From NCBI RefSeq assembly GCF_003334335.1, contig NZ_QOWQ01000026.1: a stretch of DNA of 64,000 bases, one strand, 5' to 3'. A program made the position numbers and the translations under genes. How positions within the stretch are numbered: the stretch's first letter is position 1; each line of letters begins with the position of its first letter. This stretch comes from Escherichia coli. GTDB lineage: Bacteria; Pseudomonadota; Gammaproteobacteria; Enterobacterales; Enterobacteriaceae. Positions 2,129-63,062 of the stretch are shown in pieces. A model generated the notes under the pieces. The model was not told the origin of the DNA. It worked only from the letters and a program-made list of their open reading frames with translations, and ran no database searches.

Positions 2129-2824
2129 TCATTCTTTGCCCGGAAGTTTCTTCCATGCGACGTTGTTACGTAAATAAACCGGTTCGGCATGTTCCACCGC
2201 CACCGTTTTACCCTCAGCAAACATCTGACACGCAATCGGCAGCATATCTTCAGCAGCAGGCAGTAACACTTCGCCATCGCGCAAAACCAGCCCGCTCTCT
2301 TTACCGAGATCCGGCCAAGCTTGCCAGCCCGTCCCTACCGTCACCCATTCGCCGGAAAGCTGTTGCATTCGTTCATGGACGATTTCGGGTTTGAGTACGG
2401 CTTCGGTTTCTTCACCGTGCCAGATACCGTTTTCATCACGCTGATATTCGGCCCAGTAAACTTCGCCCATTCGCGCGTCAATGGCTGCCAGCACGCGGGT
2501 TGCGCCGTTTTTGCGCCACGCCCCTTGCGCCATCGTCATTAGCGTGGAGACGCCAATCATCGGTAATTCCGCGCCAAGCGCCAGCCCTTGCGCGATGCCA
2601 ATACCAATGCGCACGCCAGTAAAGCTACCGGGGCCGCGCCCGTAAGCCAGAGCGTTAATATCAGTCAGGGAAGTTCCGCTGGTGGTCAGGATATCCTGCA
2701 CCATCGGTAAGATTCGTTGAGTATGTTCACGAGGGCAAAGCTCAAAATGAGCGTTGACAGTACCGTCGTTCCACAGGGCGACAGAGCAGGCCTCTGTCGC
2801 GGTATCGATAGCCAGAATTCGCAT
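2129..2824 (-). CDS. tsaB: tRNA threonylcarbamoyladenosine biosynthesis protein TsaB (YeaZ)
   Basis: ORF track 231 aa, [17 protein letters not shown]... typical Kae1/TsaB-family N-terminus. Confidence 0.92.
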
Positions 2825-2881
2825 GGGTCTTCGTGCTTAGATCAATAAAAAGGCGCGCATCATACCATACTCCGTAACAAA

Positions 2882-4792: not shown

Positions 4793-4923
4793 ACTACCCC
4801 CTGTTGATTTGAACAGGGATTATGTCAGGATGAGGGCGCTTTCGCCAGTTGAAGTGGTGACGGCGACCTCACATTGTGGCAGTCTTTGCAGCACGAAAAT
4901 GGAAGTATAATGAGGACAAAATG

Positions 4924-5268
4924 ATGACTATCGTTCGTATCGATGCTGAAGCCCGCTGGTCTGATGTAGTAATCCACAACAACACGCTCTACTACACTGG
5001 TGTACCGGAAAACCTCGACGCCGATGCCTTTGAGCAAACCGCCAACACGCTGGCACAGATTGACGCCGTGCTGGAAAAACAGGGCAGCAATAAATCGAGC
5101 ATTCTGGATGCCACCATTTTCCTGGCCGATAAAAACGACTTCGCGGCGATGAATAAAGCGTGGGATGCCTGGGTTGTCGCGGGTCATGCGCCGGTGCGCT
5201 GCACGGTACAAGCGGGTTTGATGAACCCGAAGTATAAAGTTGAAATTAAGATTGTGGCTGCGGTGTAA
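4924..5268 (+). CDS. yoaB: RidA/YjgF-family protein YoaB
   Basis: ORF track 4876..5268 is over-extended; the recalled protein begins MTIVRIDAEARW (114 aa). Start could equally be the adjacent ATG at 4921. Confidence 0.85.
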   Translation: MTIVRIDAEARWSDVVIHNNTLYYTGVPENLDADAFEQTANTLAQIDAVLEKQGSNKSSILDATIFLADKNDFAAMNKAWDAWVVAGHAPVRCTVQAGLMNPKYKVEIKIVAAV

Positions 5269-5689
5269 GCTTTATCGAAGCAAAATAAGTCAGACGATAA
5301 TTTATCGATAATACTGGTCGGTTTTACATAAATCGACCAGAGAATAAGATATTACTGTTGATGCTTCTGCTAATTCATTATTTATATTTATAATTTCAAT
5401 TTTATCTATAAAACTAACTATATAAATAAACATAAACATGCCGTTGTGTTCGCCCTTTGATTAGCAACTCTGGTTTTCTTTCTTAGCTGAACAATCTGGT
5501 TATAGCGTGCGGACTGACCGTTAAATTTCTCCATCTTACTGGATAACACACCATGAGCTGCTACCTTTAAAACACCTGAATGTCAACAGGTTAACTCGTG
5601 CCATATCGTTATAATCCCTTTGATATTAGATGCAAATTAAGGTCATATATAGCCTTATCGATAACATGGTTAATTTTAAGGATAAGAAT

Positions 5690-5989
5690 ATGCCTGCTGT
5701 AATAGATAAAGCCCTGGATTTCATTGGTGCCATGGATGTATCAGCGCCAACACCAAGTTCGATGAATGAAAGCACGGCGAAGGGAATCTTTAAATATTTA
5801 AAAGAACTGGGAGTACCCGCGAGTGCCGCTGATATTACGGCGCGAGCTGACCAGGAAGGCTGGAACCCTGGGTTCACGGAAAAAATGGTTGGATGGGCAA
5901 AAAAAATGGAGACAGGTGAACGTTCTGTGATTAAAAATCCTGAATACTTTTCAACATATATGCAGGAAGAACTAAAAGCACTGGTCTGA
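5690..5989 (+). CDS. yoaC: DUF1889 protein YoaC
   Basis: ORF track 5630..5989 trimmed to the ATG at 5690 (MPAVIDKALDF..., 99 aa) preceded by AAGGA RBS. Confidence 0.8.
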   Translation: MPAVIDKALDFIGAMDVSAPTPSSMNESTAKGIFKYLKELGVPASAADITARADQEGWNPGFTEKMVGWAKKMETGERSVIKNPEYFSTYMQEELKALV

Positions 5990-6108
5990 GTTAAATTTAT
6001 ATCAGCATAAATGGGTCAGGACGCTTTTAATCACATATAAAAAGCGTCCTTTTTCTCACAATCAAATGATCATCGGCTTCTATAACGAAATCGATACGGA
6101 TTAGTGTG

Positions 6109-6288
6109 TTACTCGTCTTCATCCTCAAAACGCGCCACGATTCGCTCGCCGGAGTGGTTGGCACGCAGCTCTTCTGCCACCAGCGCGATTGCCTGGCCGC
6201 TGCTCATCCCTTGTGCCATCAGTTCCTGGATCCGCTCGACAGCTTTTTGCTGCTGTTCATGGGTGAGTGAAGGTAAACCTGCAAACAT
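6109..6288 (-). CDS. yoaH: UPF0181 small protein YoaH (59 aa)
   Basis: Not in ORF track (below 60 aa). Hand translation of minus strand: [59 protein letters not shown]. Confidence 0.85.
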
Positions 6289-6361
6289 TGTTAACTCCTG
6301 CTAAATTGTTGGCGCTAATTATTTCATGCTACCCGGCACATAGCCAGTAGAGTCAGGACTG

Positions 6362-7723
6362 ATGAAGACGTTATCTCCCGCTGTGATTACTTTACCCTGG
6401 CGTCAGGACGCCGCTGAATTTTATTTCTCCCGCTTAAGCCACCTGCCGTGGGCGATGCTTTTACACTCCGGCTATGCCGATCATCCGTATAGCCGCTTTG
6501 ATATTGTGGTCGCCGAGCCGATTTGCACTTTAACCACTTTCGGTAAAGAAACCGTTGTTAGTGAAAGCGAAAAACGCACAACGACCACTGATGACCCGCT
6601 ACAGGTGCTCCAGCAGGTGCTGGATCGCGCAGACATTCGCCCAACGCATAACGAAGATTTGCCATTTCAGGGCGGCGCACTGGGGTTGTTTGGCTACGAT
6701 CTGGGCCGCCGTTTTGAGTCACTGCCAGAAATTGCGGAACAAGATATCGTTCTGCCGGATATGGCAGTGGGTATCTACGATTGGGCGCTCATTGTCGACC
6801 ACCAGCGTCATACAGTTTCTTTGCTGAGTCATAATGATGTCAATGCCCGTCGGGCCTGGCTGGAAAGCCAGCAATTCTCGCCGCAGGAAGATTTCACGCT
6901 CACTTCCGACTGGCAATCCAATATGACCCGCGAGCAGTACGGCGAAAAATTTCGCCAGGTACAGGAATATCTGCACAGCGGTGATTGCTATCAGGTGAAT
7001 CTCGCCCAACGTTTTCATGCGACCTATTCTGGCGATGAATGGCAGGCATTCCTTCAGCTTAATCAGGCCAACCGCGCGCCATTTAGCGCTTTTTTACGTC
7101 TTGAACAGGGTGCAATTTTAAGCCTTTCGCCAGAGCGGTTTATTCTTTGTGATAATAGTGAAATCCAGACCCGCCCGATTAAAGGCACGCTACCACGCCT
7201 GCCCGATCCTCAGGAAGATAGCAAACAAGCAGTAAAACTGGCGAACTCAGCGAAAGATCGTGCCGAAAATCTGATGATTGTCGATTTAATGCGTAATGAT
7301 ATCGGTCGTGTTGCCGTAGCAGGTTCGGTAAAAGTACCAGAGCTGTTCGTGGTGGAACCCTTCCCTGCCGTGCATCATCTGGTCAGCACCATAACGGCGC
7401 AACTACCAGAACAGTTACACGCCAGCGATCTGCTGCGCGCAGCTTTTCCTGGTGGCTCAATAACCGGGGCTCCGAAAGTACGGGCTATGGAAATTATCGA
7501 CGAACTGGAACCGCAGCGACGCAATGCCTGGTGCGGCAGCATTGGCTATTTGAGCTTTTGCGGCAACATGGATACCAGTATTACTATCCGCACGCTGACT
7601 GCCATTAACGGACAAATTTTCTGCTCTGCGGGCGGTGGAATTGTCGCCGATAGCCAGGAAGAAGCGGAATATCAGGAAACTTTTGATAAAGTTAATCGTA
7701 TCCTGAAGCAACTGGAGAAGTAA
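6362..7723 (+). CDS. pabB: Aminodeoxychorismate synthase component I
   Basis: ORF track 453 aa; chorismate-binding family motifs (PIKGT, SPERF, GGSITGAPK). Confidence 0.95.
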   Translation: MKTLSPAVITLPWRQDAAEFYFSRLSHLPWAMLLHSGYADHPYSRFDIVVAEPICTLTTFGKETVVSESEKRTTTTDDPLQVLQQVLDRADIRPTHNEDLPFQGGALGLFGYDLGRRFESLPEIAEQDIVLPDMAVGIYDWALIVDHQRHTVSLLSHNDVNARRAWLESQQFSPQEDFTLTSDWQSNMTREQYGEKFRQVQEYLHSGDCYQVNLAQRFHATYSGDEWQAFLQLNQANRAPFSAFLRLEQGAILSLSPERFILCDNSEIQTRPIKGTLPRLPDPQEDSKQAVKLANSAKDRAENLMIVDLMRNDIGRVAVAGSVKVPELFVVEPFPAVHHLVSTITAQLPEQLHASDLLRAAFPGGSITGAPKVRAMEIIDELEPQRRNAWCGSIGYLSFCGNMDTSITIRTLTAINGQIFCSAGGGIVADSQEEAEYQETFDKVNRILKQLEK

Positions 7724-7726
7724 GAC

Positions 7727-8305
7727 GTGGAATACCGTAGCCTGACGCTTGATGATTTTTTATCGCGCTTTCAACTTTTGCGCCCGCAAATTAACCGGGA
7801 AACCCTAAATCATCGTCAGGCTGCTGTGTTAATCCCCATCGTCCGTCGACCGCAACCGGGGTTGTTGCTGACTCAGCGTTCGATTCATCTGCGTAAACAC
7901 GCTGGACAAGTGGCATTCCCTGGAGGTGCAGTCGATGACACGGACGCATCAGCTATCGCCGCCGCGCTGCGCGAAGCTGAAGAAGAGGTCGCTATACCGC
8001 CTTCCGCCGTTGAAGTTATCGGCGTGCTGCCGCCCGTCGATAGCGTCACTGGCTACCAGGTAACCCCAGTGGTCGGCATTATCCCGCCCGATCTGCCGTA
8101 TCGCGCCAGTGAAGATGAAGTCTCGGCGGTGTTTGAAATGCCGCTCGCCCAGGCATTACATCTGGGTCGTTATCACCCTTTAGATATCTACCGCCGTGGT
8201 GATTCACATCGGGTATGGCTGTCCTGGTACGAACAGTATTTTGTATGGGGAATGACCGCAGGCATAATTCGTGAGCTGGCGCTGCAAATTGGTGTGAAAC
8301 CCTGA
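7727..8305 (+). CDS. nudL: CoA pyrophosphatase NudL (Nudix hydrolase)
   Basis: ORF track 192 aa, GTG start 4 nt after pabB stop; Nudix box [23 protein letters not shown]. Confidence 0.9.
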
Positions 8306-8488
8306 CTATACTTATCTTTACATCTACAAAACACTACTTGAGACAATCATCGCAATATTAGTTAAATCGCGGTTTTTGATTAGTTTAATTCATGTGAATA
8401 GTTAAGCCAGTCGCCGCGTTCCCTCTTACACTATGCGCTGTTATTAGTTCGTTACTGGAAGTCCAGTCACCTTGTCAGGAGTATTATC

Positions 8489-29097: not shown

Positions 29098-31699
29098 AGC
29101 GCAGATTAAAAATAAACGCCGTATCTCACCTTTCTGGCTGCTGCCGTTCATCGCGCTAATGATTGCCGGTTGGCTGATTTGGGACAGTTATCAGGACCGG
29201 GGTAATACCGTCACCATCGACTTTATGTCGGCGGATGGTATTGTCCCGGGCCGTACGCCTGTTCGTTATCAGGGCGTTGAAGTCGGAACAGTGCAGGATA
29301 TCAGCCTCAGCGACGATCTTCGTAAGATTGAAGTCAAGGTCAGCATCAAGTCCGATATGAAAGATGCGCTGCGCGAAGAGACTCAGTTCTGGCTGGTGAC
29401 GCCAAAAGCATCGTTGGCAGGTGTCTCCGGGCTGGACGCCCTCGTCGGTGGTAACTATATCGGCATGATGCCAGGTAAAGGTAAAGAGCAGGATCACTTT
29501 GTCGCACTCGATACCCAACCGAAATATCGACTGGACAATGGCGATCTGATGATCCACCTGCAAGCCCCCGATCTCGGTTCGCTGAACAGCGGTTCATTGG
29601 TCTATTTCCGCAAGATCCCTGTGGGAAAAGTCTACGACTATGCCATCAATCCCAACAAGCAAGGCGTGGTGATTGATGTCCTGATCGAGCGGCGTTTTAC
29701 CGATCTGGTGAAAAAAGGTAGCCGTTTCTGGAACGTTTCCGGCGTTGATGCCAATGTCAGTATCAGTGGCGCGAAGGTGAAACTGGAAAGTCTGGCGGCA
29801 CTGGTTAACGGTGCGATTGCCTTCGATTCACCTGAAGAGTCGAAACCTGCCGAGGCGGAAGATACCTTTGGTCTGTATGAAGATCTGGCCCACAGCCAGC
29901 GTGGCGTAATAATAAAACTGGAACTGCCGAGTGGGGCAGGATTAACCGCCGACTCGACGCCATTAATGTATCAGGGACTGGAAGTCGGACAGCTAACTAA
30001 ACTGGATTTAAATCCTGGTGGTAAAGTCACTGGGGAAATGACAGTTGATCCCAGCGTCGTTACCCTGCTTCGTGAAAATACCCGCATCGAATTACGTAAT
30101 CCGAAATTATCCCTTAGCGATGCCAATCTCAGCGCCCTGCTGACTGGCAAAACCTTCGAGTTGGTACCCGGCGATGGCGAGCCACGCAAAGAGTTCGTTG
30201 TTGTGCCAGGCGAAAAAGCACTGCTGCATGAACCTGATGTTCTGACGCTGACCCTGACCGCGCCGGAAAGTTACGGTATTGATGCTGGTCAGCCGCTCAT
30301 TCTTCACGGCGTGCAGGTAGGCCAGGTTATCGATCGTAAACTCACCAGCAAAGGCGTCACCTTTACCGTCGCCATCGAGCCTCAGCATCGAGAACTGGTA
30401 AAAGGCGATAGCAAATTTGTCGTCAACAGCCGTGTCGACGTGAAGGTGGGGCTGGATGGCGTTGAGTTTCTCGGTGCCAGCGCCTCAGAATGGATTAACG
30501 GCGGGATACGTATTCTGCCGGGCGATAAAGGCGAGATGAAAGCCAGCTATCCACTGTATGCCAATCTGGAAAAAGCGCTGGAGAACAGCCTTAGCGATTT
30601 ACCCACCACAACCGTGAGTTTGAGTGCAGAGACGCTGCCGGATGTGCAGGCAGGATCGGTAGTGCTCTACCGTAAATTTGAAGTTGGTGAAGTTATTACC
30701 GTGCGTCCGCGAGCTAACGCGTTTGATATCGATCTGCATATTAAGCCGGAGTATCGCAACCTTCTGACCAGCAATAGCGTGTTCTGGGCAGAAGGCGGGG
30801 CGAAAGTTCAGCTGAATGGTAGTGGCCTGACCGTACAGGCATCCCCGCTCTCCAGAGCATTAAAAGGGGCTATTAGCTTCGATAACCTCAGTGGTGCCAG
30901 CGCCAGTCAGCGTAAAGGCGACAAACGTATTCTGTATGCTTCCGAAACAGCGGCCCGTGCGGTTGGTGGGCAGATTACGCTTCACGCTTTCGATGCCGGA
31001 AAACTGGCGGTCGGGATGCCAATTCGCTATCTCGGTATTGATATCGGGCAAATCCAGACGCTGGATCTGATTACCGCGCGCAATGAAGTACAGGCAAAGG
31101 CGGTGCTCTATCCGGAATATGTCCAGACCTTTGCTCGCGGTGGTACGCGCTTCTCAGTGGTCACACCGCAAATTTCGGCAGCTGGCGTTGAGCATCTAGA
31201 TACTATCCTCCAGCCGTATATCAACGTCGAACCAGGCCGGGGCAATCCTCGCCGCGACTTTGAATTACAAGAGGCCACCATTACTGATTCGCGTTACCTG
31301 GATGGCTTAAGCATTATTGTTGAAGCGCCGGAAGCCGGTTCGTTAGGTATTGGTACGCCTGTGCTGTTCCGTGGTCTGGAAGTCGGTACGGTTACAGGAA
31401 TGACGCTGGGGACATTGTCAGATCGCGTGATGATTGCGATGCGCATCAGTAAACGCTATCAACACCTGGTGCGTAACAATTCCGTCTTCTGGTTGGCATC
31501 GGGTTACAGTCTGGACTTTGGTCTGACGGGCGGCGTAGTGAAAACCGGCACCTTTAACCAGTTTATCCGTGGCGGCATCGCCTTCGCCACGCCTCCGGGT
31601 ACGCCACTGGCACCGAAAGCCCAGGAAGGCAAACACTTCCTGTTGCAGGAAAGTGAACCGAAAGAGTGGCGTGAATGGGGAACTGCGCTTCCCAAATAA
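29066..31699 (+). CDS. yebT: Multi-MCE-domain intermembrane transport protein YebT (LetB)
   Basis: ORF track 29024..31699 trimmed to the ATG at 29066 ([28 protein letters not shown]..., 877 aa); overlaps yebS 3' end by 32 nt; repeated MCE-domain pattern. Confidence 0.9.
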
Positions 31700-34525: not shown

Positions 34526-34766
34526 CAATATTTTCCTCCCGCGCTAAAGATCACATAATCTTAACAAGAATGTTAAAAAACGCTGGACTCAGACAGTAGA
34601 GTGTGTGTTATGGTTGACTATAAAGTCAGCGAAGGAAATGCTTCTGGCTTTTAACAGATAAAAAGAGACCGAACACGATTCCTGTATTCGGTCCAGGGAA
34701 ATGGCTCTTGGGAGAGAGCCGTGCGCTAAAAGTTGGCATTAATGCAGGCTTAGTTGCCTTGCCCTT
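34520..34766 (+). ncRNA. ryeA: RyeA (SraC) sRNA, antisense partner overlapping SdsR
   Basis: RyeA is known to be encoded opposite SdsR between pphA and yebY; ends placed from recalled length (~250 nt), not determined from sequence. Confidence 0.4.
34659..34762 (-). ncRNA. sdsR: SdsR (RyeB) sigma-S-dependent sRNA
   Basis: Minus-strand read GCAAGGCAACTAAGCCTGCATTAATGCCAACTTTTAGCGCACGGCTCTCTCCCAAGAGCCATTTCCCTGGACCGAATACAGGAATCGTGTTCGGTCTCTTTTT matches the SdsR sequence as I recall it, including the terminator hairpin and U-tract. Confidence 0.85.
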
Positions 34767-34920
34767 TAAGAATAGATGACGACGCCAGGTTTTCCAGTTT
34801 GCGTGCAAAATGGTCAATAAAAAGCGCGGTAGTCATCAGCTTAAATGTTAAAAACCGCCCGTTCTGGTGAAAGAACTGAGGCGGTTTTTTTATTGGAAAT
34901 CAAAAGGCTATTTTAGGTAA

Positions 34921-42322: not shown

Positions 42323-42338
42323 CTGTTATTTTATACAG
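42323..42338. promoter_or_regulatory. LexA (SOS) box in the yebG promoter
   Basis: ctgt-tattttat-acag is a perfect CTGT-N8-ACAG match ~20 bp upstream of the yebG ATG. Confidence 0.85.
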
Positions 42339-49204: not shown

Positions 49205-50647
49205 ATGTCCAGAAGGCTTCGCAGAACAAAAATCGTTACCACGTTAGGCCCAGCAACAGATCGCGATAATAATCTTGAAAAAGTTATCGCGGCGGGTGCC
49301 AACGTTGTACGTATGAACTTTTCTCACGGCTCGCCTGAAGATCACAAAATGCGCGCGGATAAAGTTCGTGAGATTGCCGCAAGACTGGGGCGTCATGTGG
49401 CTATTCTGGGTGACCTCCAGGGGCCCAAAATCCGTGTATCCACCTTTAAAGAAGGCAAAGTTTTCCTCAATATTGGGGATAAATTCCTGCTCGACGCCAA
49501 CCTGGGTAAAGGTGAAGGCGACAAAGAAAAAGTCGGTATCGACTACAAAGGCCTGCCTGCTGACGTTGTGCCTGGCGACATCCTGCTGCTGGACGATGGT
49601 CGCGTTCAGTTAAAAGTACTGGAAGTTCAGGGCATGAAAGTGTTCACCGAAGTGACCGTCGGTGGTCCCCTCTCCAACAATAAAGGTATCAACAAACTTG
49701 GCGGCGGTTTGTCGGCTGAAGCGCTGACCGAAAAAGACAAAGCAGACATTAAGACTGCGGCGTTGATTGGCGTAGATTACCTGGCTGTCTCCTTCCCACG
49801 CTGCGGCGAAGATCTGAACTATGCCCGTCGCCTGGCACGCGATGCAGGATGTGATGCGAAAATTGTTGCCAAGGTTGAACGTGCGGAAGCCGTTTGCAGC
49901 CAGGATGCAATGGATGACATCATCCTCGCCTCTGACGTGGTAATGGTTGCACGTGGCGACCTCGGTGTGGAAATTGGCGACCCGGAACTGGTCGGCATTC
50001 AGAAAGCGTTGATCCGTCGTGCGCGTCAGCTAAACCGAGCGGTAATCACGGCGACCCAGATGATGGAGTCAATGATTACTAACCCGATGCCGACGCGTGC
50101 AGAAGTCATGGACGTAGCAAACGCCGTTCTGGATGGTACTGACGCTGTGATGCTGTCTGCAGAAACTGCCGCAGGGCAGTATCCGTCAGAAACTGTTGCA
50201 GCCATGGCGCGCGTTTGCCTGGGTGCGGAAAAAATCCCGAGCATCAACGTTTCTAAACACCGTCTGGACGTTCAGTTCGACAATGTGGAAGAAGCTATTG
50301 CCATGTCAGCAATGTACGCAGCTAACCACCTGAAAGGCGTTACGGCGATTATTACCATGACCGAATCGGGTCGTACCGCGCTGATGACCTCCCGTATCAG
50401 CTCTGGTCTACCAATTTTCGCCATGTCGCGCCATGAACGTACGCTGAACCTGACTGCTCTCTATCGTGGCGTTACGCCGGTGCACTTTGATAGCGCTAAT
50501 GACGGCGTAGCAGCTGCCAGCGAAGCGGTTAATCTGCTGCGCGATAAAGGTTACTTGATGTCTGGTGACCTGGTGATTGTCACCCAGGGCGACGTGATGA
50601 GTACCGTGGGTTCTACTAATACCACGCGTATTTTAACGGTAGAGTAA
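49205..50647 (+). CDS. pykA: Pyruvate kinase II
   Basis: ORF track 49064..50647 trimmed to the ATG at 49205 ([19 protein letters not shown]..., 480 aa). Confidence 0.95.
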
Positions 50648-50653
50648 GTACGT

Positions 50654-50690
50654 TGCCGGATGCGGCGAAAACGCCACATCCGGCCTACAG
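50654..50690. repeat. REP (repetitive extragenic palindromic) element downstream of pykA
   Basis: gccggatgcggcgaaaacgccacatccggcctacag, a typical enterobacterial REP palindrome. Confidence 0.8.
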
Positions 50691-50754
50691 TTCAATGATA
50701 GTTCAACAGATTTCGAATATTCTGAAGCAAACTTGAACTTATCATCAGGCGAAG

Positions 50755-50779
50755 GCCTCTCCTCGCGAGAGGCTTTTTT
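50755..50779 (+). terminator. Intrinsic terminator (pykA side) abutting the lpxM stop codon
   Basis: gcctctc-ctcgc-gagaggc followed by tttttt. Confidence 0.75.
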
Positions 50780-51749
50780 ATTTGATGGGATAAAGATCTT
50801 TGCGCTTATACGGCTGGATTTCGCCCGGTTTGCGAGTTTTCAGCAATTTTAGTATCCAGGTGTATTGTTCTGGTCGCGGACCAACAAAAATCTCGACTTC
50901 TTCATTCATCCGCCGCGCAATCGTATGATCATCCGCCTCTAACAGATCATCCATCGGTGGGCGCACCTGAATCGTCAGACGATGCGTCTTGCCATCATAA
51001 ATCGGAAACAGCGGTACAACGCGCGCACGGCACACTTTCATCAAACGACCAATCGCGGGCAACGTCGCTTTATAGGTGGCAAAGAAATCCACAAATTCGC
51101 TGTGCTCTGGGCCATGATCCTGATCGGGTAAATAATATCCCCAGTACCCCTGACGTACCGACTGGATGAATGGTTTAATACCGTCATTTCTCGCATGCAG
51201 ACGACCGCCAAAGCGACGACGCACCGTGTTCCAGACATAATCAAAAACCGGGTTGCCCTGATTATGGAACATCGCTGCCATTTTCTGCCCTTGCGAGGCC
51301 ATCAGCATGGCAGGGATATCGACGGCCCAACCGTGCGGCACCAGAAAGATAACTTTCTCGTTATTACGCCGCATCTCTTCGATGATCTCCAGCCCTTGCC
51401 AGTCAACGCGCGGCTGAATTTTCTCCGGCCCGCGTATTGCCAACTCAGCCATCATTGCCATCGCTTGCGGCGCGGTGGCAAACATCTCATCAACAATCGC
51501 TTCGCGTTCAGCTTCACTACGTTCTGGAAAGCAGAGCGACAAATTGATTAACGCACGACGGCGTGAGCTTTTTCCCAGTCGTCCGGCAAAACGTCCCAGC
51601 CGTGCCAGAATGGGATCACGGAACTTTGGCGGCGTTAAAGCGATACCCGCCATCGCTGCTACGCCCAGCCATGCTCCCCAGTAGCGCGGGTGGCGAAAGG
51701 ATTTATCAAACTCAGGAATGTATTCGCTATTATTTTTTTTCGTTTCCAT
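50778..51749 (-). CDS. lpxM: Lipid A biosynthesis myristoyltransferase LpxM (MsbB)
   Basis: ORF track 323 aa; HtrB/MsbB acyltransferase family. Confidence 0.93.
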
Positions 51750-51822
51750 GCTTTTCCAGTTTCGGATAAGGCAAAAATCAATCTGGTGATAGTGTAGCGG
51801 CGCAACTTGCCCCGCACCAAAT

Positions 51823-51852
51823 AAAAAAAGCCGGTACTGACTGCGTACCGGC
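51823..51852 (-). terminator. Intrinsic terminator downstream of mepM
   Basis: gccggtac-tgactgc-gtaccggc; minus-strand read followed by TTTTTTT. Confidence 0.8.
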
Positions 51853-51868
51853 TGCGAATGGATGTTAA

Positions 51869-53191
51869 TTAATCAAACCGTAGCTGCGGCACAATCTCTT
51901 TGGCCTGCGCCAGGAATTCGCGACGATCGGAGCCGGTCAGCCCTTCGGTACGCGGCAGTTTTGCCGTCAGCGGGTTTACGGCCTGCTGGTTTATCCATAC
52001 TTCATAGTGCAGATGCGGCCCGGTTGAACGTCCGGTATTACCGGAAAGCGCGATACGGTCGCCACGTTTCACCTTCTGTCCCGGTTTCACCAGAATCTTG
52101 CGCAAGTGCATATAACGCGTGGTGTAGCTGCGACCATGACGAATAGCCACATAATAACCTGCTGCGCCACTGCGTTTGGCAACCACCACTTCACCGTCAC
52201 CCACTGAAAGCACTGGCGTACCCTGCGGCATGGCGAAATCAACACCTCTGTGTGGTGCAACGCGACCGGTCACCGGATTAGTACGACGCGGGTTAAAGTT
52301 AGACGAGATACGGAACTGTTTCGCCGTCGGGAATCGCAAGAATCCTTTCGCCAGACCAGTACCGTTACGATCGTAGAATTTGCCATCCTCAGCGCGGATT
52401 GCGTAATAATCTTTACCTTCTGAACGCAAACGTACGCCCAGCAGCTGGCTTTGCTCACGTTTACCATCAAGCATTTCTCGAGACATTAACACCGCAAATT
52501 CATCGCCTTTTTTCAGTTTGCGGAAATCCATTTGCCACTGCATGGCTTTAATCACTGCGCTCACTTCGGCGCTGGTTAAACCGGCGTTTCTGGCGCTGGC
52601 AACAAAGCTCCCCCCGACGGTACCTTTCAGCAGATTGTTAACCCACTCTCCTTGCTGCATTTCGCTGGTCATTTTAAAACCGTTAGCGGCAGTACGGTCA
52701 TAGGTTCGGGTTTCACGACGAGACACTTCCCAGGTGAGGCGCTGCAGTTCGCCGTCCGCGGTTAATGTCCAGGAGAGTTGTTGACCGATTTTCAGATTAC
52801 GCAATTCTTTGTCGGCCGCAGCCAGTTGGGTGATATCACCCATATCAATACCATACTGATTGAGAATGCTGCTTAGCGTATCGCCAGTTGAAACAACATA
52901 TTCATGCACGCCCGCTTCACCGGCGATTTTGTCATCCAGTTCATCCTGGGGAATGGCTTCATCTTCTTGTGCAGCTTGATCAATCGGCTCACTGGCTTCA
53001 GGTAAGAGTGAACGAATTTCGTTCTGTTCCAGCTCAATGGTTTTGACAATTGGCGTGGCATCGCGGTGATAAACATAGGGCCGCCAGACAGCGACGGCCA
53101 GAGTAAGAACGGTGAGCGACCCCAACATAACGCGGTGTGGTCGCGGTAAATTATTAAACGCCAGGGCGACAGAGCGGGCTATCTGTTGCAC
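51869..53191 (-). CDS. mepM: Murein DD-endopeptidase MepM (YebA), LysM plus M23 peptidase
   Basis: ORF track 440 aa; M23 metallopeptidase motifs (HRGVDF..., HLHYEV) in the C-terminal domain. Confidence 0.93.
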
Positions 53192-53206
53192 GTAATCACT
53201 TCCTCA

Positions 53207-54139
53207 TTAATCTCCTTTCAGGCAGCTCGCATACTGGTTGGCTAATTGACTCAGGAATTCTGAATAGCTTGTTTTACCCAGTTTGATATTCGTCCCCAGG
53301 GGATCCAACGTTCCCATACGAACGGATGTCCCTCGTGCGACGCTCTCAACGACCGCTGGCCTGAACTGTGGCTCAGCAAAAACGCAGGTTGCTTTTTGCT
53401 CAACCAACTGTGTTCTTATTTCATGTAAACGCTGCGCGCCAGGTTGAATCTCAGGGTTAACGGTAAAATGACCAAGCGGTGTCAGTCCAAACTGTTTTTC
53501 GAAATAGCCGTAAGCATCGTGAAAAACGAAATAACCTTTCCCCTTGAGCGGCGCGAGCTCGTTACCAACCTGCGTTTCGGTTGAGGCTAATTGTGCCTCA
53601 AAATCCTTCAGGTTGGCGTCAAGTTTGGCTCGACTTTGCGGCATAAGTTCCACTAATTTTCCATGGATTGCAACCGCTGTAGCCCGCGCTATCTCTGGGG
53701 AAAGCCAAAGATGCATGTTGAAATCGCCGTGATGGTGATCTTCGTCACTTTTTTCCGCGTGGTCGTGATCATCATCATCGCCGTGAATACTTTTCATCAG
53801 TAGCGGTTTCACATCTTCAAGCTGCGCAATCGTTACCTGCTTCGCTTCTGGTAATTTGCTTACCGGTTTTTGCATAAACGCTTCCATCTCCGGGCCAACC
53901 CAAACGACTAAGTCCGCGTTCTGTAAGCGTTTTACATCCGATGGACGCAGTGAATAATCATGTTCTGAAGCGCCGTCAGGCAGTAAAACCTCCGTTTCTG
54001 TTACACCATCAGCAATGGCAGAAGCGATGAACCCAACGGGTTTAAGCGAAGCGACAACGGCGGCATCTGCGGCCTGTGTTGCACCTCCCCAGAGAGCGGC
54101 GGATAATGCTGCGAAAAGAAGCGTTTTTTTATGTAACAT
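53207..54139 (-). CDS. znuA: High-affinity zinc ABC transporter periplasmic binding protein ZnuA
   Basis: ORF track 53207..54265 trimmed to the ATG at 54139 ([23 protein letters not shown]..., 310 aa); His/Asp-rich loop [21 protein letters not shown]. Confidence 0.93.
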
Positions 54140-54167
54140 AATGCGACCAATCATCGTAATGAATATG

Positions 54168-54192
54168 AGAAGTGTGATATTATAACATTTCA
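54168..54192. promoter_or_regulatory. Zur box in the divergent znuA / znuCB promoter
   Basis: gagaagtgtgatattataacatttc is an AT-rich palindrome resembling the Zur consensus, between divergently transcribed znuA and znuC. Confidence 0.75.
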
Positions 54193-54217
54193 TGACTACT
54201 GCAAGACTAAAATTAAC

Positions 54218-54973
54218 ATGACAAGTCTGGTTTCCCTGGAAAATGTCTCGGTTTCTTTTGGCCAACGCCGCGTCCTCTCTGATGTGTCGCTGGAACTTAA
54301 ACCTGGAAAAATTTTGACTTTACTTGGGCCAAATGGCGCAGGTAAGTCGACACTGGTACGGGTAGTGCTCGGGCTGGTAACACCCGATGAAGGGGGTATC
54401 AAGCGCAACGGAAAACTGCGCATCGGCTATGTACCGCAGAAGCTGTATCTCGACACCACGTTGCCACTGACCGTAAACCGTTTTTTACGCTTACGCCCTG
54501 GTACACATAAAGAAGATATTTTGCCTGCACTGAAACGTGTCCAGGCCGGGCACCTGATTAACGCACCGATGCAAAAGCTCTCTGGTGGCGAAACGCAGCG
54601 TGTACTGTTAGCGCGAGCATTGTTAAATCGCCCGCAATTATTAGTGCTGGATGAACCCACTCAAGGCGTGGATGTAAATGGCCAGGTGGCGTTATATGAC
54701 CTTATTGACCAACTGCGTCGTGAACTGGATTGTGGCGTTTTAATGGTTTCTCACGATCTGCATCTGGTGATGGCAAAAACCGATGAAGTGCTGTGCCTGA
54801 ATCACCACATTTGTTGTTCCGGCACACCGGAAGTTGTTTCCCTGCATCCGGAGTTTATTTCAATGTTTGGTCCTCGTGGTGCTGAACAACTGGGTATCTA
54901 TCGCCATCATCATAACCATCGTCACGATTTACAGGGACGAATTGTTTTGCGTCGGGGAAATGATCGCTCATGA
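54218..54973 (+). CDS. znuC: Zinc ABC transporter ATP-binding protein ZnuC
   Basis: ORF track 251 aa; Walker [10 protein letters not shown], signature LSGGETQR, Walker B LLVLDEP. Confidence 0.95.
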
Positions 54974-55755
54974 TTGAATTATTATTTCCCGGTTGGTTAG
55001 CCGGGATCATGCTCGCCTGTGCCGCGGGTCCGCTGGGTTCGTTTGTAGTCTGGCGTCGTATGTCTTATTTCGGTGATACGCTGGCTCATGCCTCATTACT
55101 TGGTGTCGCGTTTGGTTTGTTGCTGGACGTGAATCCATTCTATGCGGTGATTGCCGTTACGCTGCTGCTGGCGGGCGGTCTGGTATGGCTGGAGAAGCGT
55201 CCACAGCTGGCGATCGACACGTTATTAGGGATTATGGCGCACAGTGCCCTGTCGCTGGGCCTGGTGGTCGTTAGTCTGATGTCTAATATTCGTGTTGATT
55301 TGATGGCTTACCTGTTCGGTGATTTGCTGGCAGTGACGCCAGAAGATCTCATCTCTATTGCGATTGGCGTGGTCATCGTGGTGGCTATTTTGTTCTGGCA
55401 ATGGCGCAATTTGCTGTCGATGACGATTAGCCCGGATCTGGCGTTTGTTGATGGTGTGAAATTACAGCGCGTGAAATTGTTGTTGATGCTGGTGACGGCA
55501 TTGACGATTGGTGTAGCGATGAAATTTGTCGGCGCGTTGATTATTACTTCGTTGCTGATTATTCCTGCAGCTACTGCGCGTCGCTTTGCCCGCACGCCGG
55601 AACAGATGGCTGGTGTCGCTGTTTTGGTGGGGATGGTGGCAGTAACTGGCGGTTTAACCTTTTCCGCATTTTACGATACGCCGGCTGGTCCGTCGGTGGT
55701 GCTATGTGCGGCACTGTTATTTATTCTCAGTATGATGAAAAAGCAGGCCAGCTAA
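54970..55755 (+). CDS. znuB: Zinc ABC transporter permease ZnuB
   Basis: ORF track 261 aa; start overlaps znuC stop (ATGA). Confidence 0.95.
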
Positions 55756-55773
55756 TCTATCGCTGAACACATT

Positions 55774-56915
<1,142 letters not shown>

Positions 56916-56920
56916 TTACC

Positions 56921-57532
56921 TCATAACGCGGCGCGTAGGGCTTCGCGAATTAATGTTTCACTGCTGGCGTCAGGGCGAGCGATTTTGCTCACCATGCGGC
57001 TGGCTTCTTGTGGTTTATAGCCCAGCGCCACCAGCGCAGCAACCGCTTCCTGTTCAGCATCGTTGGTTGCCGGGCTGGCAGGCGACGTGAGCACCAGATC
57101 GGCGGCTGGCGTAAAGAGATCGCCATGCAGACCTTTAAATCGATCTTTCATTTCGACAATCAAGCGTTCTGCGGTTTTTTTGCCAATACCCGGCAGTTTC
57201 ACCAGCGCCCCCACTTCTTCACGCTCAACGGCATTAACGAACTGCTGCGCTGACATTCCGGAGAGGATCGCCAGCGCCAACTTCGGGCCGACGCCGTTGG
57301 TTTTGATCAACTCTTTGAACAACGTGCGCTCTTGTTTATTGTTAAAACCGTACAGCAGCTGCGCGTCTTCACGCACCACAAAGTGGGTGAAAACGATCGC
57401 TTCCTGTCCCGCTTCAGGGAGTTCATAAAAACAGGTCATCGGCATATGCACTTCATAGCCTACGCCGCCCACTTCAATTAACACCAGCGGGGGTTGTTTT
57501 TCAATGATGATGCCTCTGAGTCTGCCTATCAC
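56921..57532 (-). CDS. ruvA: Holliday junction DNA-binding protein RuvA
   Basis: ORF track 203 aa. Confidence 0.97.
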
Positions 57533-57583
57533 ATGACGCTCCTGCGTAATGAATCAAAGATAATGCTGTATGATAAAAAAATG

Positions 57584-57599
57584 CTGGATAGATATCCAG
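57584..57599. promoter_or_regulatory. LexA (SOS) box of the ruvAB promoter
   Basis: ctgg-atagatat-ccag palindrome ~50 bp upstream of the ruvA ATG (CTG-N10-CAG class). Confidence 0.8.
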
Positions 57600-57807
57600 C
57601 GAAGGATGAAGAAAACTTGCGAGGTGTCTCGATGATCTGAAAAATGGCACAGTATAATTTATTCTACAGGTTATTTTGGAAGCAAATATTTTAATATTAC
57701 ATATTCAGTGAAAAAATGCGTAATAAAAATATACATTGCGCCTCCTGAAAAAAATAAATTTTTTATGCTATTACGTATATTCGTATCTATTTCAATGGAA
57801 TGACAAC

Positions 57808-58410
57808 GTGAATATTAATTACCCTGCTGAATATGAAATTGGAGATATCGTCTTTACATGTATAGGTGCTGCCTTATTTGGTCAAATATCAGCTGCATCA
57901 AATTGTTGGAGTAATCACGTCGGGATCATTATCGGTCATAACGGTGAAGACTTCCTGGTTGCAGAAAGCCGGGTCCCCCTTTCAACCATCACCACGCTAT
58001 CTCGTTTTATTAAACGTTCGTCTAATCAACGCTATGCTATAAAGCGATTAGACGCTGGGCTGACAGAACAACAAAAACAACGAATTGTTGAACAGATTCC
58101 CTCCCGGCTACGCAAACTCTACCACACCGGTTTTAAATACGAATCTTCGCGCCAGTTCTGTTCAAAATTTGTCTTTGATATTTATAAAGAGGCGCTATGT
58201 ATTCCGGTGGGTGAAATAGAGACGTTTGGAGAACTGTTAAATAGCAATCCGAATGCAAAACTCACTTTCTGGAAATTCTGGTTCCTAGGTTCTATTCCGT
58301 GGGAGCGTAAAACCGTCACGCCAGCCAGTTTGTGGCATCATCCGGGTTTGGTGTTGATTCATGCGGAGGGAGTGGAAACGCCTCAGCCGGAACTGACCGA
58401 GGCGGTATAA
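57808..58410 (+). CDS. yebB: Uncharacterized protein YebB (DUF830)
   Basis: ORF track 57736..58410; recalled protein is ~200 aa, so start placed at GTG 57808 ([16 protein letters not shown]...); start uncertain. Confidence 0.7.
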
Positions 58411-58411
58411 C

Positions 58412-58933
58412 TTAACGCAGTCGCCCTCTCGCCAGGTTCAGCCGCGATTCGCTCATCTGCATCGCATTCTGACTGACGTGACAATGGGTAATCGCGATAG
58501 CTAACGCATCGGCGGCATCCGCCTGTGGATTAGCGGGCAGTTTCAGCAAGGTGCGGACCATATGCTGCACCTGGCTTTTTTCGGCACTACCAATACCTAC
58601 CACCGTTTGCTTTACCTGACGTGCCGCGTATTCAAATACCGGCAATTCCTGATTCACCGCCGCAACAATCGCCACGCCGCGCGCCTGGCCCAGTTTCAGG
58701 GCTGAGTCAGCGTTCTTCGCCATAAAGACTTGTTCAATGGCGAAATAATCAGGCTGGAACTGGGTGATGATTTCCGTCACGCCCGCATAGATGAGCTTCA
58801 GACGAGACGGTAAATCATCCACTTTGGTGCGTATGCATCCGCTACCCAGGTAGGACAGTTGCCTGCCTACCTGGCGAATTACGCCATAGCCGGTCACGCG
58901 CGAACCCGGATCAATGCCGAGAATAATAGCCAT
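58412..58933 (-). CDS. ruvC: Crossover junction endodeoxyribonuclease RuvC
   Basis: ORF track 58412..58936; recalled protein starts [17 protein letters not shown] (173 aa). Confidence 0.95.
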
Positions 58934-58967
58934 CACGCGTCTCCGTTTTGCTGTTTAGCAGGCCTCA

Positions 58968-59708
58968 TCAGAGAGTCGCTGCGACCTCATCAGAGATTTC
59001 ACCGTTATGGTAAACTTCCTGCACGTCGTCGCAATCTTCCAGCATATCGATCAGACGCATCAGTTTCGGTGCGGTTTCTGCATCCATATCAGCTTTGGTG
59101 GACGGGATCATGGAAACTTCCGCGCTGTCTGCTTTCAGACCTGCCGCTTCCAGAGCGTCGCGCACTTTACCCATTTCTTCCCATGCAGTGTAGACATCAA
59201 TCGCGCCGTCATCATAGGTCACAACGTCTTCAGCACCTGCTTCCAGAGCTGCTTCCATGATGGTGTCTTCATCGCCTTTCTCGAAGGAGATCACGCCTTT
59301 TTTGCTGAACAGATAGGCTACGGAACCATCTGTACCGAGGTTACCGCCACATTTGCTGAATGCATGACGCACTTCAGCAACGGTACGGTTGCGGTTGTCA
59401 GACAGACATTCAATCATGATTGCCGTGCCGCCAGGACCGTAACCTTCGTAGATGATGGTTTCCATGTTTGCATCATCATCACCGCCCACACCACGTGCAA
59501 TTGCGCGGTTCAGTGTGTCACGGGTCATGTTGTTAGACAGTGCTTTATCCACCGCCGCACGCAGACGCGGGTTAGCGTCCGGATCGCCACCGCCCAGCTT
59601 AGCCGCGGTTACCAGCTCACGAATGATTTTAGTGAAGATTTTACCGCGCTTAGCATCCTGCGCAGCTTTACGATGTCTGGTGTTGGCCCATTTACTATGA
59701 CCTGCCAT
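58968..59708 (-). CDS. yebC: YebC/PmpR-family protein (DNA-binding regulator / translation-associated factor)
   Basis: ORF track 58968..59876 trimmed to the ATG at 59708 ([27 protein letters not shown]..., 246 aa). Confidence 0.92.
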
Positions 59709-59736
59709 AAAAATATCTCCAGATAGCCCTGCCTGT

Positions 59737-60189
59737 TCAGGCAGCGTTAATGACAAACTGTTCAATCGCCTGCCGGTTGCTCCAGGACTTAGTGAGCGCC
59801 GCCGCAGCAGGCGCATCAAGCCACTTGTAAGCCAGATGTTCAGTGAAAACGATCTGCCGCTCGTGCGGAAGCGCAAGACAGAACCATGATTCCGTATTAC
59901 GCGTCACGCCCGGCGCATAGCGATGACGTAAATGTGAAAAAATTTCAAACTCTACCGTGCGCTGACAGTCAATTAAGGTCAGTTGTTCAGCGACAACATC
60001 AATGGTGACCTCTTCCTTTACTTCGCGCATGGCAGCTTGCGGCGCGGTTTCACCCTCTTCCACGCTGCCGGTTACCGACTGCCAGAAATCGGGATCGTCA
60101 CGCCGCTGCAACATCAGCACCCGTTTCGTATCTTGTGCATAGATGACCACTAAGATCGAAACGGGACGCTTATACACTTTATCCTTCAC
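59737..60189 (-). CDS. nudB: Dihydroneopterin triphosphate pyrophosphatase NudB (Nudix)
   Basis: ORF track 59737..60246 trimmed to GTG 60189 ((M)[17 protein letters not shown]..., 150 aa); Nudix box [21 protein letters not shown]. Confidence 0.88.
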
Positions 60190-60306
60190 GCTGCCTCTTC
60201 GTTGACTGCCTTCGCTCATCCCATTCACATAGTTATCTATGCTCATGGGAGTTCACTCAGTTGCCGCCTTGATGCAACGCGAATGATTTCGTGTATTTGA
60301 GTCATA

Positions 60307-62079
60307 TCAGTTATTCTCAGCCTTCTTCACAACCTGAATGCTCAGCTCAGCCAGTGCAGTCGGGTTAGCAAAGCTCGGTGCTTCAGTCATCAGACACGCT
60401 GCCGCCGTGGTTTTCGGGAAGGCGATAACGTCACGGATATTGTCGGTGCCGGTCAGCAGCATGGTCAGACGGTCAAGACCGAATGCCAGACCTGCGTGCG
60501 GCGGAGTACCGTATTTCAGAGCGTCGAGCAGGAAGCCGAATTTCTCGCGCTGTTCCTCTTCGTTGATACCCAGAATACCAAACACCGTCTGCTGCATATC
60601 ACCATTATGGATACGTACTGAACCACCGCCCACTTCGTAACCATTGATGACCATATCGTAAGCGTTCGCCACCGCATTTTCCGGTGCAGCTTTCAGTTCT
60701 GCAGCAGTCATGTCTTTCGGTGAGGTGAACGGATGGTGCATTGCCGTCAGGCCGCCTTCACCGTCGTCTTCAAACATCGGGAAGTCGATAACCCACAGCG
60801 GTGCCCATTTGCTTTCGTCGGTCAGACCAAGGTCTTTACCCACTTTCAGGCGCAGTGCGCCCATCGCGTCGGCAACAATTTTCTTGTTGTCGGCACCGAA
60901 GAAAATCATATCGCCATCTTGCGCGGCAGTACGATCCAGGATGGCTTCGATGATTTCTGCATTAAGGAACTTCGCTACCGGGCTGTTGATACCTTCCAGA
61001 CCTTTCGCGCGTTCGTTAACTTTGATGTAAGCCAGACCTTTCGCGCCGTAGATTTTAACGAAGTTACCGTATTCGTCGATCTGCTTACGGGTCAGCGATG
61101 CGCCGCCCGGAACGCGCAGAGCGGCAACGCGACCTTTCGGATCGTTCGCCGGACCTGCAAATACTGCAAACTCAACAGATTTCAGCAGATCAGCAACGTC
61201 GGTCAGTTCCATCGGGTTACGCAGATCCGGTTTATCAGAACCATAACGGCGTTCTGCTTCCGCAAAGGTCATTACCGGGAAATCGCCCAGATCCACGCCC
61301 TTCACTTCCAGCCACAAATGACGCACCAGCGCTTCCATCACTTCACGCACTTGCGGCGCGGTCATGAAAGAAGTTTCCACATCGATCTGAGTAAATTCAG
61401 GCTGACGATCAGCGCGCAGGTCTTCGTCACGGAAGCATTTAACGATCTGATAGTAACGGTCAAAACCGGACATCATCAGCAGCTGTTTGAACAACTGTGG
61501 GGATTGCGGCAGTGCGTAGAATTTACCTTTGTGCACACGAGAAGGCACCAGGTAGTCACGCGCGCCTTCCGGCGTGGCTTTGGTCAGCATCGGAGTTTCG
61601 ATGTCGAGGAAGCCGTGGTCATCCATAAAACGGCGCACCAGGCTGGTGATTTTAGCGCGGGTTTTCAGGCGCTGAGCCATTTCCGGACGACGCAGGTCGA
61701 GGTAGCGGTATTTCAGACGCGCTTCTTCGGTGTTGACGTGGTTAGAGTCAAGCGGCAGAACATCTGCGCGGTTGATGATAGTCAGCGAGGACGCCAGCAC
61801 TTCGATTTCGCCGGTCGCCATATCGCGGTTAATATTTTTTTCGTCACGCGCACGTACGGTGCCCGTGACCTGAATGCAGAACTCATTACGCAGTTCAGAG
61901 GCCAGCTTTAACGCGTCCGCACGATCCGGATCGAAAAATACCTGCACGATACCTTCGCGGTCGCGCATATCGATGAAGATCAGGCTACCAAGATCACGAC
62001 GACGGTTGACCCAACCACACAGAGTCACCTGCTGCCCCACGTGGGACAAACGGAGCTGTCCACAATATTCTGTACGCAT
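60307..62079 (-). CDS. aspS: Aspartate--tRNA ligase
   Basis: ORF track 590 aa; class II aaRS motifs and N-terminal OB anticodon-binding domain. Confidence 0.97.
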
Positions 62080-62388
62080 GAGATATCCCTTAACTTAGCT
62101 GCCGGCGGATGCCCCCTGCTGCGCAGGTGACCAAGTCGCAGCGTTAGCTGTATGTCACAACTGAATGAAAAAAGGCGGCTATTATACTGGAAATTCTGCC
62201 GCACCGTAAGAGCCTGGCCCGCGCTGGAACGCCTCGTTACCACTTTATATCGGGCCTGAAATCAGACTCTACGCCAGTTTGCTATAAAGGTGTTGCCCGA
62301 ACTCATAAAAATTAACAAAATTTGTCGTTCCGCAATCGGCTAATCGCATTAAGGTGTGAGGCACGATTTTGTTTTTTCAGGAGTCAGC

Positions 62389-62955
62389 ATGCTTGAACTT
62401 AATGCTAAAACCACTGCGTTGGTGGTGATCGATTTACAAGAAGGCATCTTACCTTTTGCCGGTGGTCCACATACTGCCGATGAGGTAGTTAATCGCGCCG
62501 GGAAGCTGGCGGCGAAATTTCGCGCCAGCGGTCAGCCCGTGTTTCTGGTGCGAGTTGGCTGGTCTGTCGATTACGCCGAAGCATTAAAACAGCCGGTTGA
62601 TGCCCCCTCCCCCGCTAAAGTGTTGCCCGAAAACTGGTGGCAACATCCAGCTGCATTAGGTGCAACTGACAGTGATATCGAAATCATCAAACGTCAGTGG
62701 GGTGCGTTTTACGGTACGGATCTGGAGTTGCAACTGCGCCGCCGAGGTATCGATACAATAGTGTTATGTGGGATCTCGACCAATATCGGTGTTGAATCCA
62801 CCGCCCGCAATGCCTGGGAACTTGGCTTTAATCTGGTGATTGCCGAAGACGCCTGTAGTGCCGCCAGCGCCGAGCAACACAATAACAGCATTAATCATAT
62901 CTACCCGCGCATCGCCCGTGTGCGTAGCGTGGAAGAGATCCTTCACGCGTTATGA
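62389..62955 (+). CDS. yecD: Isochorismatase-family hydrolase YecD
   Basis: ORF track 62356..62955 trimmed to the ATG at 62389 ([17 protein letters not shown]..., 188 aa). Confidence 0.88.
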
Positions 62956-63062
62956 TTTACATCGGTCTACCGCAATGGTCGCATCCTAAATGGGTGCGGT
63001 TGGGGATCACCAGCCTTGAAGAGTATGCCCGCCACTTTAACTGCGTGATACGGGATTTTTAA
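62952..63062 (+). pseudogene. yecE: yecE (DUF72) 5' fragment: first ~32 codons intact, then sequence diverges and hits a stop after 4 foreign codons
   Basis: ATG overlaps yecD stop (ATGA). Translation [32 protein letters not shown] matches the YecE N-terminus as I recall it, then IRDF* instead of the expected EVNTTFY...; no long ORF follows. Confidence 0.75.

Follow-up and report, generated by a model that had tools for sequence, protein, structure and literature searches.

The yecE gene of Escherichia coli is documented as an integration site of lambdoid and Stx phages (PMC8065619), and a second study names it as a known site of such phages with a 21-bp attachment (att) sequence (PMC8112680). 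Reference elements include phiP27 (AJ298298), the classical yecE Stx2e phage, the Stx2a phage Stx2_12E129_yecE (LC567842) and PPyecE_EH1910 (PMC8112680), which use the same attB in yecE as the DNA described here. Another close element is P-EibC, a phage of E. coli ECOR-9 that was deposited in GenBank in 2000 in a record covering 9.7 kb (AF151674). The ECOR-9 prophage with eibC and eaaC goes back to Sandt and Hill (2000), as cited in a review on SPATE proteins, and EaaC has been described from ECOR-9 prophages as a SPATE-type autotransporter (PMC3153244).

Here we compare with these elements one end of a 64,000-nt stretch of E. coli DNA (hereafter the window; contig NZ_QOWQ01000026.1). Positions 63037–63047 are almost certainly the crossover core of the int-distal junction of a P-EibC-type lambdoid prophage that entered yecE by tyrosine-integrase-mediated integration. 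The phage P-EibC, the eaaC and eibC cargo, the yecE site and the att core are all already public (AF151674; AJ298298; LC567842; PMC8112680; PMC8065619; PMC3153244), and the value of the comparison lies mainly in correct annotation, with little beyond it: 63048 is the first base of a prophage of an expected ~50 kb, whose cargo would be eibC, for an immunoglobulin-binding adhesin, and the SPATE gene eaaC.

The yecE breakpoint and its P-EibC flank

On the host side, segments 1–25000, 25001–50000 and 50001–63047 could each be aligned in one piece, ~100% identical, with the chromosomes of several completely sequenced E. coli strains including EC416, and alignments confirmed the statement of the preliminary description that the backbone is collinear with the K-12 order up to yecD. 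The order in EC416 is edd, zwf, hexR, pyk, lpxM, mepM, znuACB, ruvAB, yebB, ruvC, yebC, nudB, aspS and yecD, the last in the allele found in the window, followed by an intact yecE, yecN and cmoAB. Because its backbone matches at ~100% and its yecE is intact, EC416 provides a natural empty-site control; the sole difference between the window and EC416 at this locus is the switch to foreign DNA past 63047. Elsewhere on the backbone, Rfam matches at gathering scores fell on 34656–34800 (both strands), the overlapping small RNA pair SraC/RyeA and SdsR/RyeB, and on 18708–19168 (minus strand), a cspA-type thermoregulator 5′ UTR; nothing about either sets it apart from the usual backbone.

The final host gene ahead of the junction is yecD (62389–62955, plus strand; 188 codons), an intact isochorismatase-family hydrolase gene whose product matched NCBIfam NF008517 over its full length (385 bits against a cutoff of 195) and which relatives annotate under the same name. 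Its stop codon overlaps the ATG of yecE in the sequence ATGA at 62952–62955, as had been described before. From there 96 nt, or 32 codons, of yecE (62952–63047, plus strand; yecE′, the B arm of the hybrid site) are perfectly identical to nt 1–96 of the gene in both K-12 MG1655 and EC416, and from 63048 on similarity to both genomes is gone. The host DNA is therefore identical to the empty site up to a discrete breakpoint, as is expected of a hybrid site, and the interruption that had been estimated at about 96 nt into the gene, from about 63,048, lies exactly between 63047 and 63048. The preliminary description had left room for an intact K-12 yecE that continues with this same sequence past codon 32; in the alignment, the K-12 gene is unlike the window there.

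The open reading frame (ORF) that starts with yecE′ spans 62952–63062 (plus strand) and encodes 36 aa. It runs into phage DNA, where four phage-derived codons (IRDF) precede the stop codon at 63060–63062. NCBIfam NF007637, the YecE family model of 272 positions, matched residues 1–32 of this short ORF only, in agreement with the earlier view that the first 32 codons read like YecE, and the absence of a DUF72 ORF after the IRDF-stop, also remarked on earlier, held for the remaining 950 bases of the window in the ORF list. Judged by its sequence, this ORF of 36 codons is what is left of yecE as a pseudogene; PGAP labels its counterpart in the complete genome S1-CAM-02-A, the best relative, a C-terminally truncated pseudogene.

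The foreign DNA in the window amounts to 953 bases (63048–64000), and the stretch 63040–64000 is 100% identical to AF151674. This record contains the same core, P′ arm, dinI-like gene, intergenic hairpins and eaaC 3′ end, and it crosses the yecE′ junction base for base, continuing leftwards into yecD and aspS, with yecD, yecE′, the att site and the dinI-like gene left without annotation. The downstream DNA, which had been called phage-type, can thus be named: it is 100% phage P-EibC, with a P′ arm homologous to those of the phages CharmingMan, PhiR49_2 and phiP27. On the strength of this identity we take the foreign DNA to be the end of an Eib/Eaa-carrying lambdoid prophage of the P-EibC type.

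The two host flanks are not the same. Over the compared interval (62334–62944), 24 differences separate AF151674 from the window, all of them in yecD. The window strain can for that reason not simply be equated with the published ECOR-9 clone, unless that flank has recombined; either the source of the window is another lysogen, or recombination beside the prophage has replaced yecD. AF151674 equals the window in aspS, in yecE′ and in all phage DNA. At the 24 yecD differences the window has the EC416 allele, and AF151674 has the K-12 allele where compared (62877–62944).

Attachment core, P′ arm and candidate integrase sites

The crossover core, TTAACTGCGTG (11 bp; 63037–63047, plus strand), is the stretch at which the window, K-12 and the int-side junction of S1-CAM-02-A still agree before they part. 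These are the last 11 host bases, at yecE codons 29–32, and they are common to attB, attP and both prophage junctions. In a three-way alignment, the window junction (BOP′) reads GCCCGCCACTTTAACTGCGTG followed by ATACGG, the K-12 empty site (BOB′) reads GCCCGCCACTTTAACTGCGTG followed by GAGGGC, and the int-side junction of S1-CAM-02-A (POB′) reads ACCCGTCATGTTAACTGCGTG followed by GAGGGC. TTAACTGCGTG occurs once in the window, with an imperfect extension upstream. The identical 11 bp are annotated as attR in phiP27, at the end of the record, and the core sits inside the 21-bp att repeat annotated in LC567842, which is present at both ends of that record. Compared with the window, core alleles of the yecE Stx and non-Stx phages differ by one or two bases. 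That yecE is a reported integration site of lambdoid and Stx phages, as the preliminary description had stated, is supported by the phiP27 attR annotation, by PMC8065619 and by PMC8112680.

Past the breakpoint, the window continues as the P′ arm of a bona fide attP, aligning with the attP of CharmingMan and with the genome ends of PhiR49_2 and phiP27, and on this alignment the junction reads as the int-distal (tail-fibre-end) hybrid site, BOP′, which is attR in lambda terms. CharmingMan, a free phage, has an uninterrupted attP in the order xis, int, core, P′ arm, dinI and tail fibre. The genome of PhiR49_2 (record host ECOR13) has its ends at the core; it encodes an integrase (Int) that shares 99% identity with the one of S1-CAM-02-A, and its P′ arm matches that of the window at 88%.

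The P′ arm (63048–63244, plus strand) is non-coding and 100% identical to AF151674. It is 61.6–88.3% identical to the corresponding sequences of PhiR49_2, phiP27, CharmingMan (intact attP) and Stx2_12E129_yecE and to apparent fossil copies in phi80 and PPompW prophages; the value for phiP27 is 72%, and the yecE Stx and non-Stx phages have a homologous P′ arm (62–72%) with the same conserved repeats. In an alignment of seven sequences the mean column identity was 66%, and short invariant islands corresponded to the core, to a core-proximal block and to the repeats. The block, TTTTAAAAATCACTAAAGAACGCCCAAGAGCAT (63056–63090, plus strand), contains most of the alignment's invariant columns. It is A/T-rich and may be a binding site for an accessory protein (IHF or Xis) or for Int.

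The repeats form a cluster at 63165–63223 (plus strand) with three members, TGTCCCAACCATGCCCCA (63165–63182), ATGCCCCA (63185–63192) and TGTCCCATGCATGCCCCA (63206–63223), which is marked out by clustering and by conservation across diverged P′ arms. TGYCCCA half-sites occur five times in 59 bp, whereas 300 block shuffles of the window never exceeded 2 per 60 bp, and the motif columns are invariant across the diverged P′ arms of yecE phages. ATGCCCCA alone was not enriched window-wide (3 found against 2.7 expected), and only its clustering and cross-phage conservation therefore carry meaning. An extra copy of the repeat, TGTCCCAATGATGCCCCA, lies in the P arm, inside the int 3′ end of relatives; it is kept between Ints that are only 76% identical, and protein coding could account for its conservation there. 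The tally for TGTCCCA-N3-ATGCCCCA is two and a half copies in the P′ arm (63165–63223) and one in the P arm of relatives. We propose these clustered repeats as candidate arm-type sites of Int, a motif that was apparently not stated before in the literature found.

The organization resembles the lambda paradigm in the order xis, int, attP and late-gene end, in the short identical core and in the presence of repeats in both arms. It differs from lambda in that the core lies inside a protein-coding gene and not in an intergenic region, and in its repeats: the lambda arm-site consensus is unrelated to the candidate motif TGTCCCA-N3-ATGCCCCA. The att anatomy of an 11-bp core, a core-proximal block and clustered repeats could mark the boundaries of yecE prophages precisely and could guide arm-site binding tests of the yecE integrase family.

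Other readings of the P′ arm were considered. Two minus-strand ORFs over it (63037–63243 and 63059–63217) were rejected as genes, as they are unannotated in relatives and the conservation takes the form of short binding-site blocks; phiP27 does annotate a hypothetical ORF across its P′ arm. No RNA family was found at the junction by Rfam, either at gathering thresholds over the whole window or at E ≤ 1 over 62900–64000. The sole match in the latter interval, mir-2008 on the eaaC hairpin, was dismissed as chance.

The prophage end and the far junction in a relative

Next to the P′ arm is a dinI-like gene (63310–63558, plus strand; 82 aa), a prophage moron at the extreme end of the element. Its product matched PHROG 189, 'RecA filament binding protein DinI', over the full length (E = 8.9e-27). 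Its score of 63 bits on NCBIfam NF007893 falls short of the equivalog cutoff (111), and the gene is for this reason called DinI-like and not chromosomal DinI. Upstream, on the same strand, a promoter scan (10 of 12) returned TTGACA-18-AAAAAT; the promoter proper spans 63245–63274, and with the two LexA boxes that overlap it, CTGTTTATACATACAG (63251–63266) and CTGTACATAACCACAG (63279–63294), the regulatory region extends over 63245–63294. Both boxes have the form CTGT-N8-ACAG, which was found 4 times in the window against 0.68 expected, two of these at the dinI promoter. The two other exact matches are at 4801–4816 and 42323–42338. A LexA site is annotated at the homologous position in phi80, and Stx2_12E129_yecE has, like the window, a dinI gene with LexA boxes at its prophage end. 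Sequence and LexA-controlled promoter both place the product in the DinI family, relatives also annotate it as DinI-like, and the prophage end thus appears to carry a SOS-controlled DinI-like RecA modulator.

A terminator scan found a terminator-like hairpin 3′ of the dinI-like gene (63656–63675, plus strand), with a 7-pair stem, 5 G-C pairs and a T-rich tail. Between the yecD stop codon and the start of the dinI-like gene the same scan returned no terminator-like site, so that read-through from yecD into the dinI-like gene is possible.

At the right edge, the window cuts into the 3′ end of eaaC (63925–64000, minus strand; 100% identical to AF151674), a gene for a SPATE-type serine-protease autotransporter. 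The last 25 codons are visible and end in NAGFRYSF*, a typical autotransporter C-terminus, with the stop at 63925 as in AF151674; relatives annotate an S6 family peptidase at this position. Just 3′ of eaaC lies a stem-loop (63878–63910, minus strand) that AF151674 annotates as such (2319–2351 of the retrieved locus, converted to window positions) and whose inverted repeat, GAAGGAGATC paired with GATCTCCTTC, is visible in the window sequence. The cargo had been expected beyond 64,000, which stands except for the dinI-like gene and the eaaC 3′ end, both of which are already inside the window.

A sharp module boundary at 63553–63559 separates the conserved att–dinI end from variable cargo. Most genomes with this junction resemble the window no further than the dinI-like stop codon (query coverage to 1254–1259 of 1701). 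The cargo past the P′ arm and dinI is eaaC and eibC in the window, nleC in Stx2_12E129_yecE and unnamed ORFs in phiP27. PhiR49_2 and CharmingMan, unlike the window, are without eaaC beside dinI and have tail fibre genes directly after it.

The far side of the element was extrapolated from the closest complete genomes, which are 97.6–99.4% identical over 62300–64000, with S1-CAM-02-A the best at 99.4%. In S1-CAM-02-A, yecE′ is followed by the dinI-like gene, the S6 peptidase (Eaa), a YadA-like protein (Eib), tail fibre, lambda-like tail, head, terminase and lysis genes, and further on by Q, replication genes, a LexA-family repressor, an excisionase and a 437-aa tyrosine integrase, after which come the yecE (DUF72) remainder (nt 97–819), yecN and cmoAB. 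TTAACTGCGTG is present at both ends of this prophage, 50,968 bp apart, and the int gene stops 19 nt short of the core. The second core with the 3′ part of yecE, predicted earlier to lie next to int and xis, is therefore seen ~51 kb away in this relative. No module is missing from this prophage, and a pseudogene flag is attached to just two of its internal genes. Integrase and excisionase genes are also present in PhiR49_2, CharmingMan and LC567842, with Ints 76–99% identical; the Int of Stx2_12E129_yecE is 76% identical to that of S1-CAM-02-A.

At the int side of S1-CAM-02-A (retrieved locus 30231–31001), the yecE remainder is annotated by PGAP as a DUF72 protein of 256 aa, labelled intact. 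Translation would have to begin at ATT, within phage DNA and overlapping the int 3′ end, and the phage P arm mimics yecE codons 25–32 (NTRHVNCV against YARHFNCV). The remainder in S1-CAM-02-A is probably non-functional, and in the window strain yecE is most likely inactivated, because the start codon and the first 32 codons are lost. On the host side of S1-CAM-02-A, an island upstream of lpxM encodes a TrmB-family regulator, a beta-L-arabinofuranosidase-domain protein and an alpha-mannosidase (retrieved locus 2514–8391). In EC416, pyk lies directly beside lpxM, and the island is apparently absent from the window, so that the prophage occurs on different chromosomal backgrounds.

From these comparisons the origin of the locus can be reconstructed with high confidence. 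The phage attP would lie between int and the dinI-like gene, and Int would pair its core, TTAACTGCGTG, with the same 11 bp in codons 29–32 of yecE for strand exchange. Recombination of attP with attB would split yecE after nt 96 (codon 32). The window holds the left product: yecD and yecE′ with the core, then the P′ arm, the dinI-like gene under apparent SOS control and, in convergent orientation, eaaC; past 64,000 there would follow eibC, tail, head, lysis, Q, replication and immunity genes, xis and int, and then a second core and yecE codons 33–272. The far junction would read CCCGTCATGTTAACTGCGTG and then GAGGGCAAC, from yecE codon 33 onward, ahead of yecN and cmoAB, and the circular attP junction formed on excision would read GTTAACTGCGTGATACGGG. 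The window itself shows where yecE breaks off and which core lies there, that the foreign DNA is identical to P-EibC, and that the P′ arm has homologues in bona fide attP and attR sites; the far junction, the integrase and the size of ~51 kb are expected from relatives.

Frequency, alternative origins and possible fossil junctions

Of 5426 complete E. coli genomes, 4903 covered at least 80% of a 200-nt probe centred on the K-12 attB, which leaves ~523 (9.6%) without a contiguous match across the yecE site at that threshold. Roughly a tenth of the sequenced E. coli genomes thus appear to have this site occupied, and the insertion in the window is genuine but ordinary. In 240 of the complete genomes at least 80% of a 311-nt probe over the window junction (yecE′ plus P′ arm) was covered, and the specific dinI–eaaC arrangement (at least 80% of 62300–64000, 97.6–99.4% identity) was found in 9 of the 5426.

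These counts bear on the origin of the junction. A lone junction cannot formally separate insertion from rearrangement, and the sequence might in principle reflect the insertion of an IS element or transposon, the endpoint of a deletion or inversion, an assembly chimera or a divergent yecE allele, with no phage integration at all. However, the breakpoint falls exactly at a core common to the att sites of independently deposited phages, the foreign flank is colinear with the attP of a free phage, and the junction recurs in a GenBank record from 2000 and in the 240 complete genomes, while yecE of the K-12 type runs across the break in ninety percent of genomes. A repeat search of 63030–63330 found neither an IS-type terminal inverted repeat nor a target-site duplication at the breakpoint. 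The coincidence with the att core and the recurrence of the junction exclude for practical purposes that the junction stems from an IS, a rearrangement or an artefact or that it is allelic variation, and we give a non-phage origin next to no credence. It is only slightly less far-fetched that the element is a Shiga-toxin-converting phage, at which the preliminary description had hinted. Several Stx1a, Stx2a and Stx2d phages do use the same att site and end with dinI (database matches; PMC8112680), but Stx phages match the dinI part only, at ~80% identity, whereas the foreign DNA is 100% identical to P-EibC of ECOR-9, a strain called non-pathogenic in the SPATE review (PMC3153244). The module after dinI is eaaC, against nleC in the Stx2a yecE phage, and S1-CAM-02-A is without an annotated Stx between Q and the lysis genes. 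Nothing in the window points to stx, and that hint is withdrawn in favour of an Eib/Eaa prophage of the P-EibC type.

A more serious alternative accepts the junction as real and attributes it to a decayed, non-inducible prophage remnant or island, in which int and xis or the far junction have been lost and the morons of the attR side (dinI, eaaC, eibC) are left. The 953 visible bases of the element and the 9.7 kb covered by AF151674 are compatible with such a remnant, and many lambdoid prophages of E. coli are defective, for example all PPompW prophages examined, according to PMC8112680. Against this, the nearest complete genome has a full-length prophage of ~51 kb with all modules and two pseudogenes, PhiR49_2 (Int 99%, P′ arm 88%) is a separate phage genome record, and prophage-borne eaaC has been moved between strains by transduction, according to the SPATE review (PMC3153244). 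We therefore regard decay as unlikely, though well above the other two alternatives, and favour integration of a P-EibC-type lambdoid prophage whose int-distal end is seen in the window.

Sequences like this junction also occur inside other phages. In phi80 (JX871397, retrieved locus 1416–2012), an N-terminal yecE fragment, there a DUF72 pseudogene, is followed by the core, P′-arm-like sequence with the repeats, a LexA box and a dinI homologue, and in PPompW_132418 (LC567822, retrieved locus 735–1010) such a fragment is followed by the core and P′-arm-like sequence with the conserved repeats. PMC8112680 traces a 100-bp region of PPompW prophages, attB-in-PP_1, to yecE and describes it as a site of prophage-in-prophage integration; the section that covers this leaves the P′ arm unmentioned. 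From their sequence, attB-in-PP_1 and the DUF72 fragment of phi80 look like fossil BOP′ junctions and not bare copies of attB. The P′-arm-like sequence that follows them was apparently not stated before in the literature found. If they are fossil junctions, prophage-in-prophage integration would be a reaction of attP with an attR-like site. For the joint reading, in which TGTCCCA-N3-ATGCCCCA marks the arm-type sites of yecE-specific integrases and the attB-in-prophage and phi80 DUF72 fragments are fossil BOP′ junctions, we consider the chances evenly balanced. The phage mEp237, too, is similar to the window at this position, in both the core and the P′ arm.
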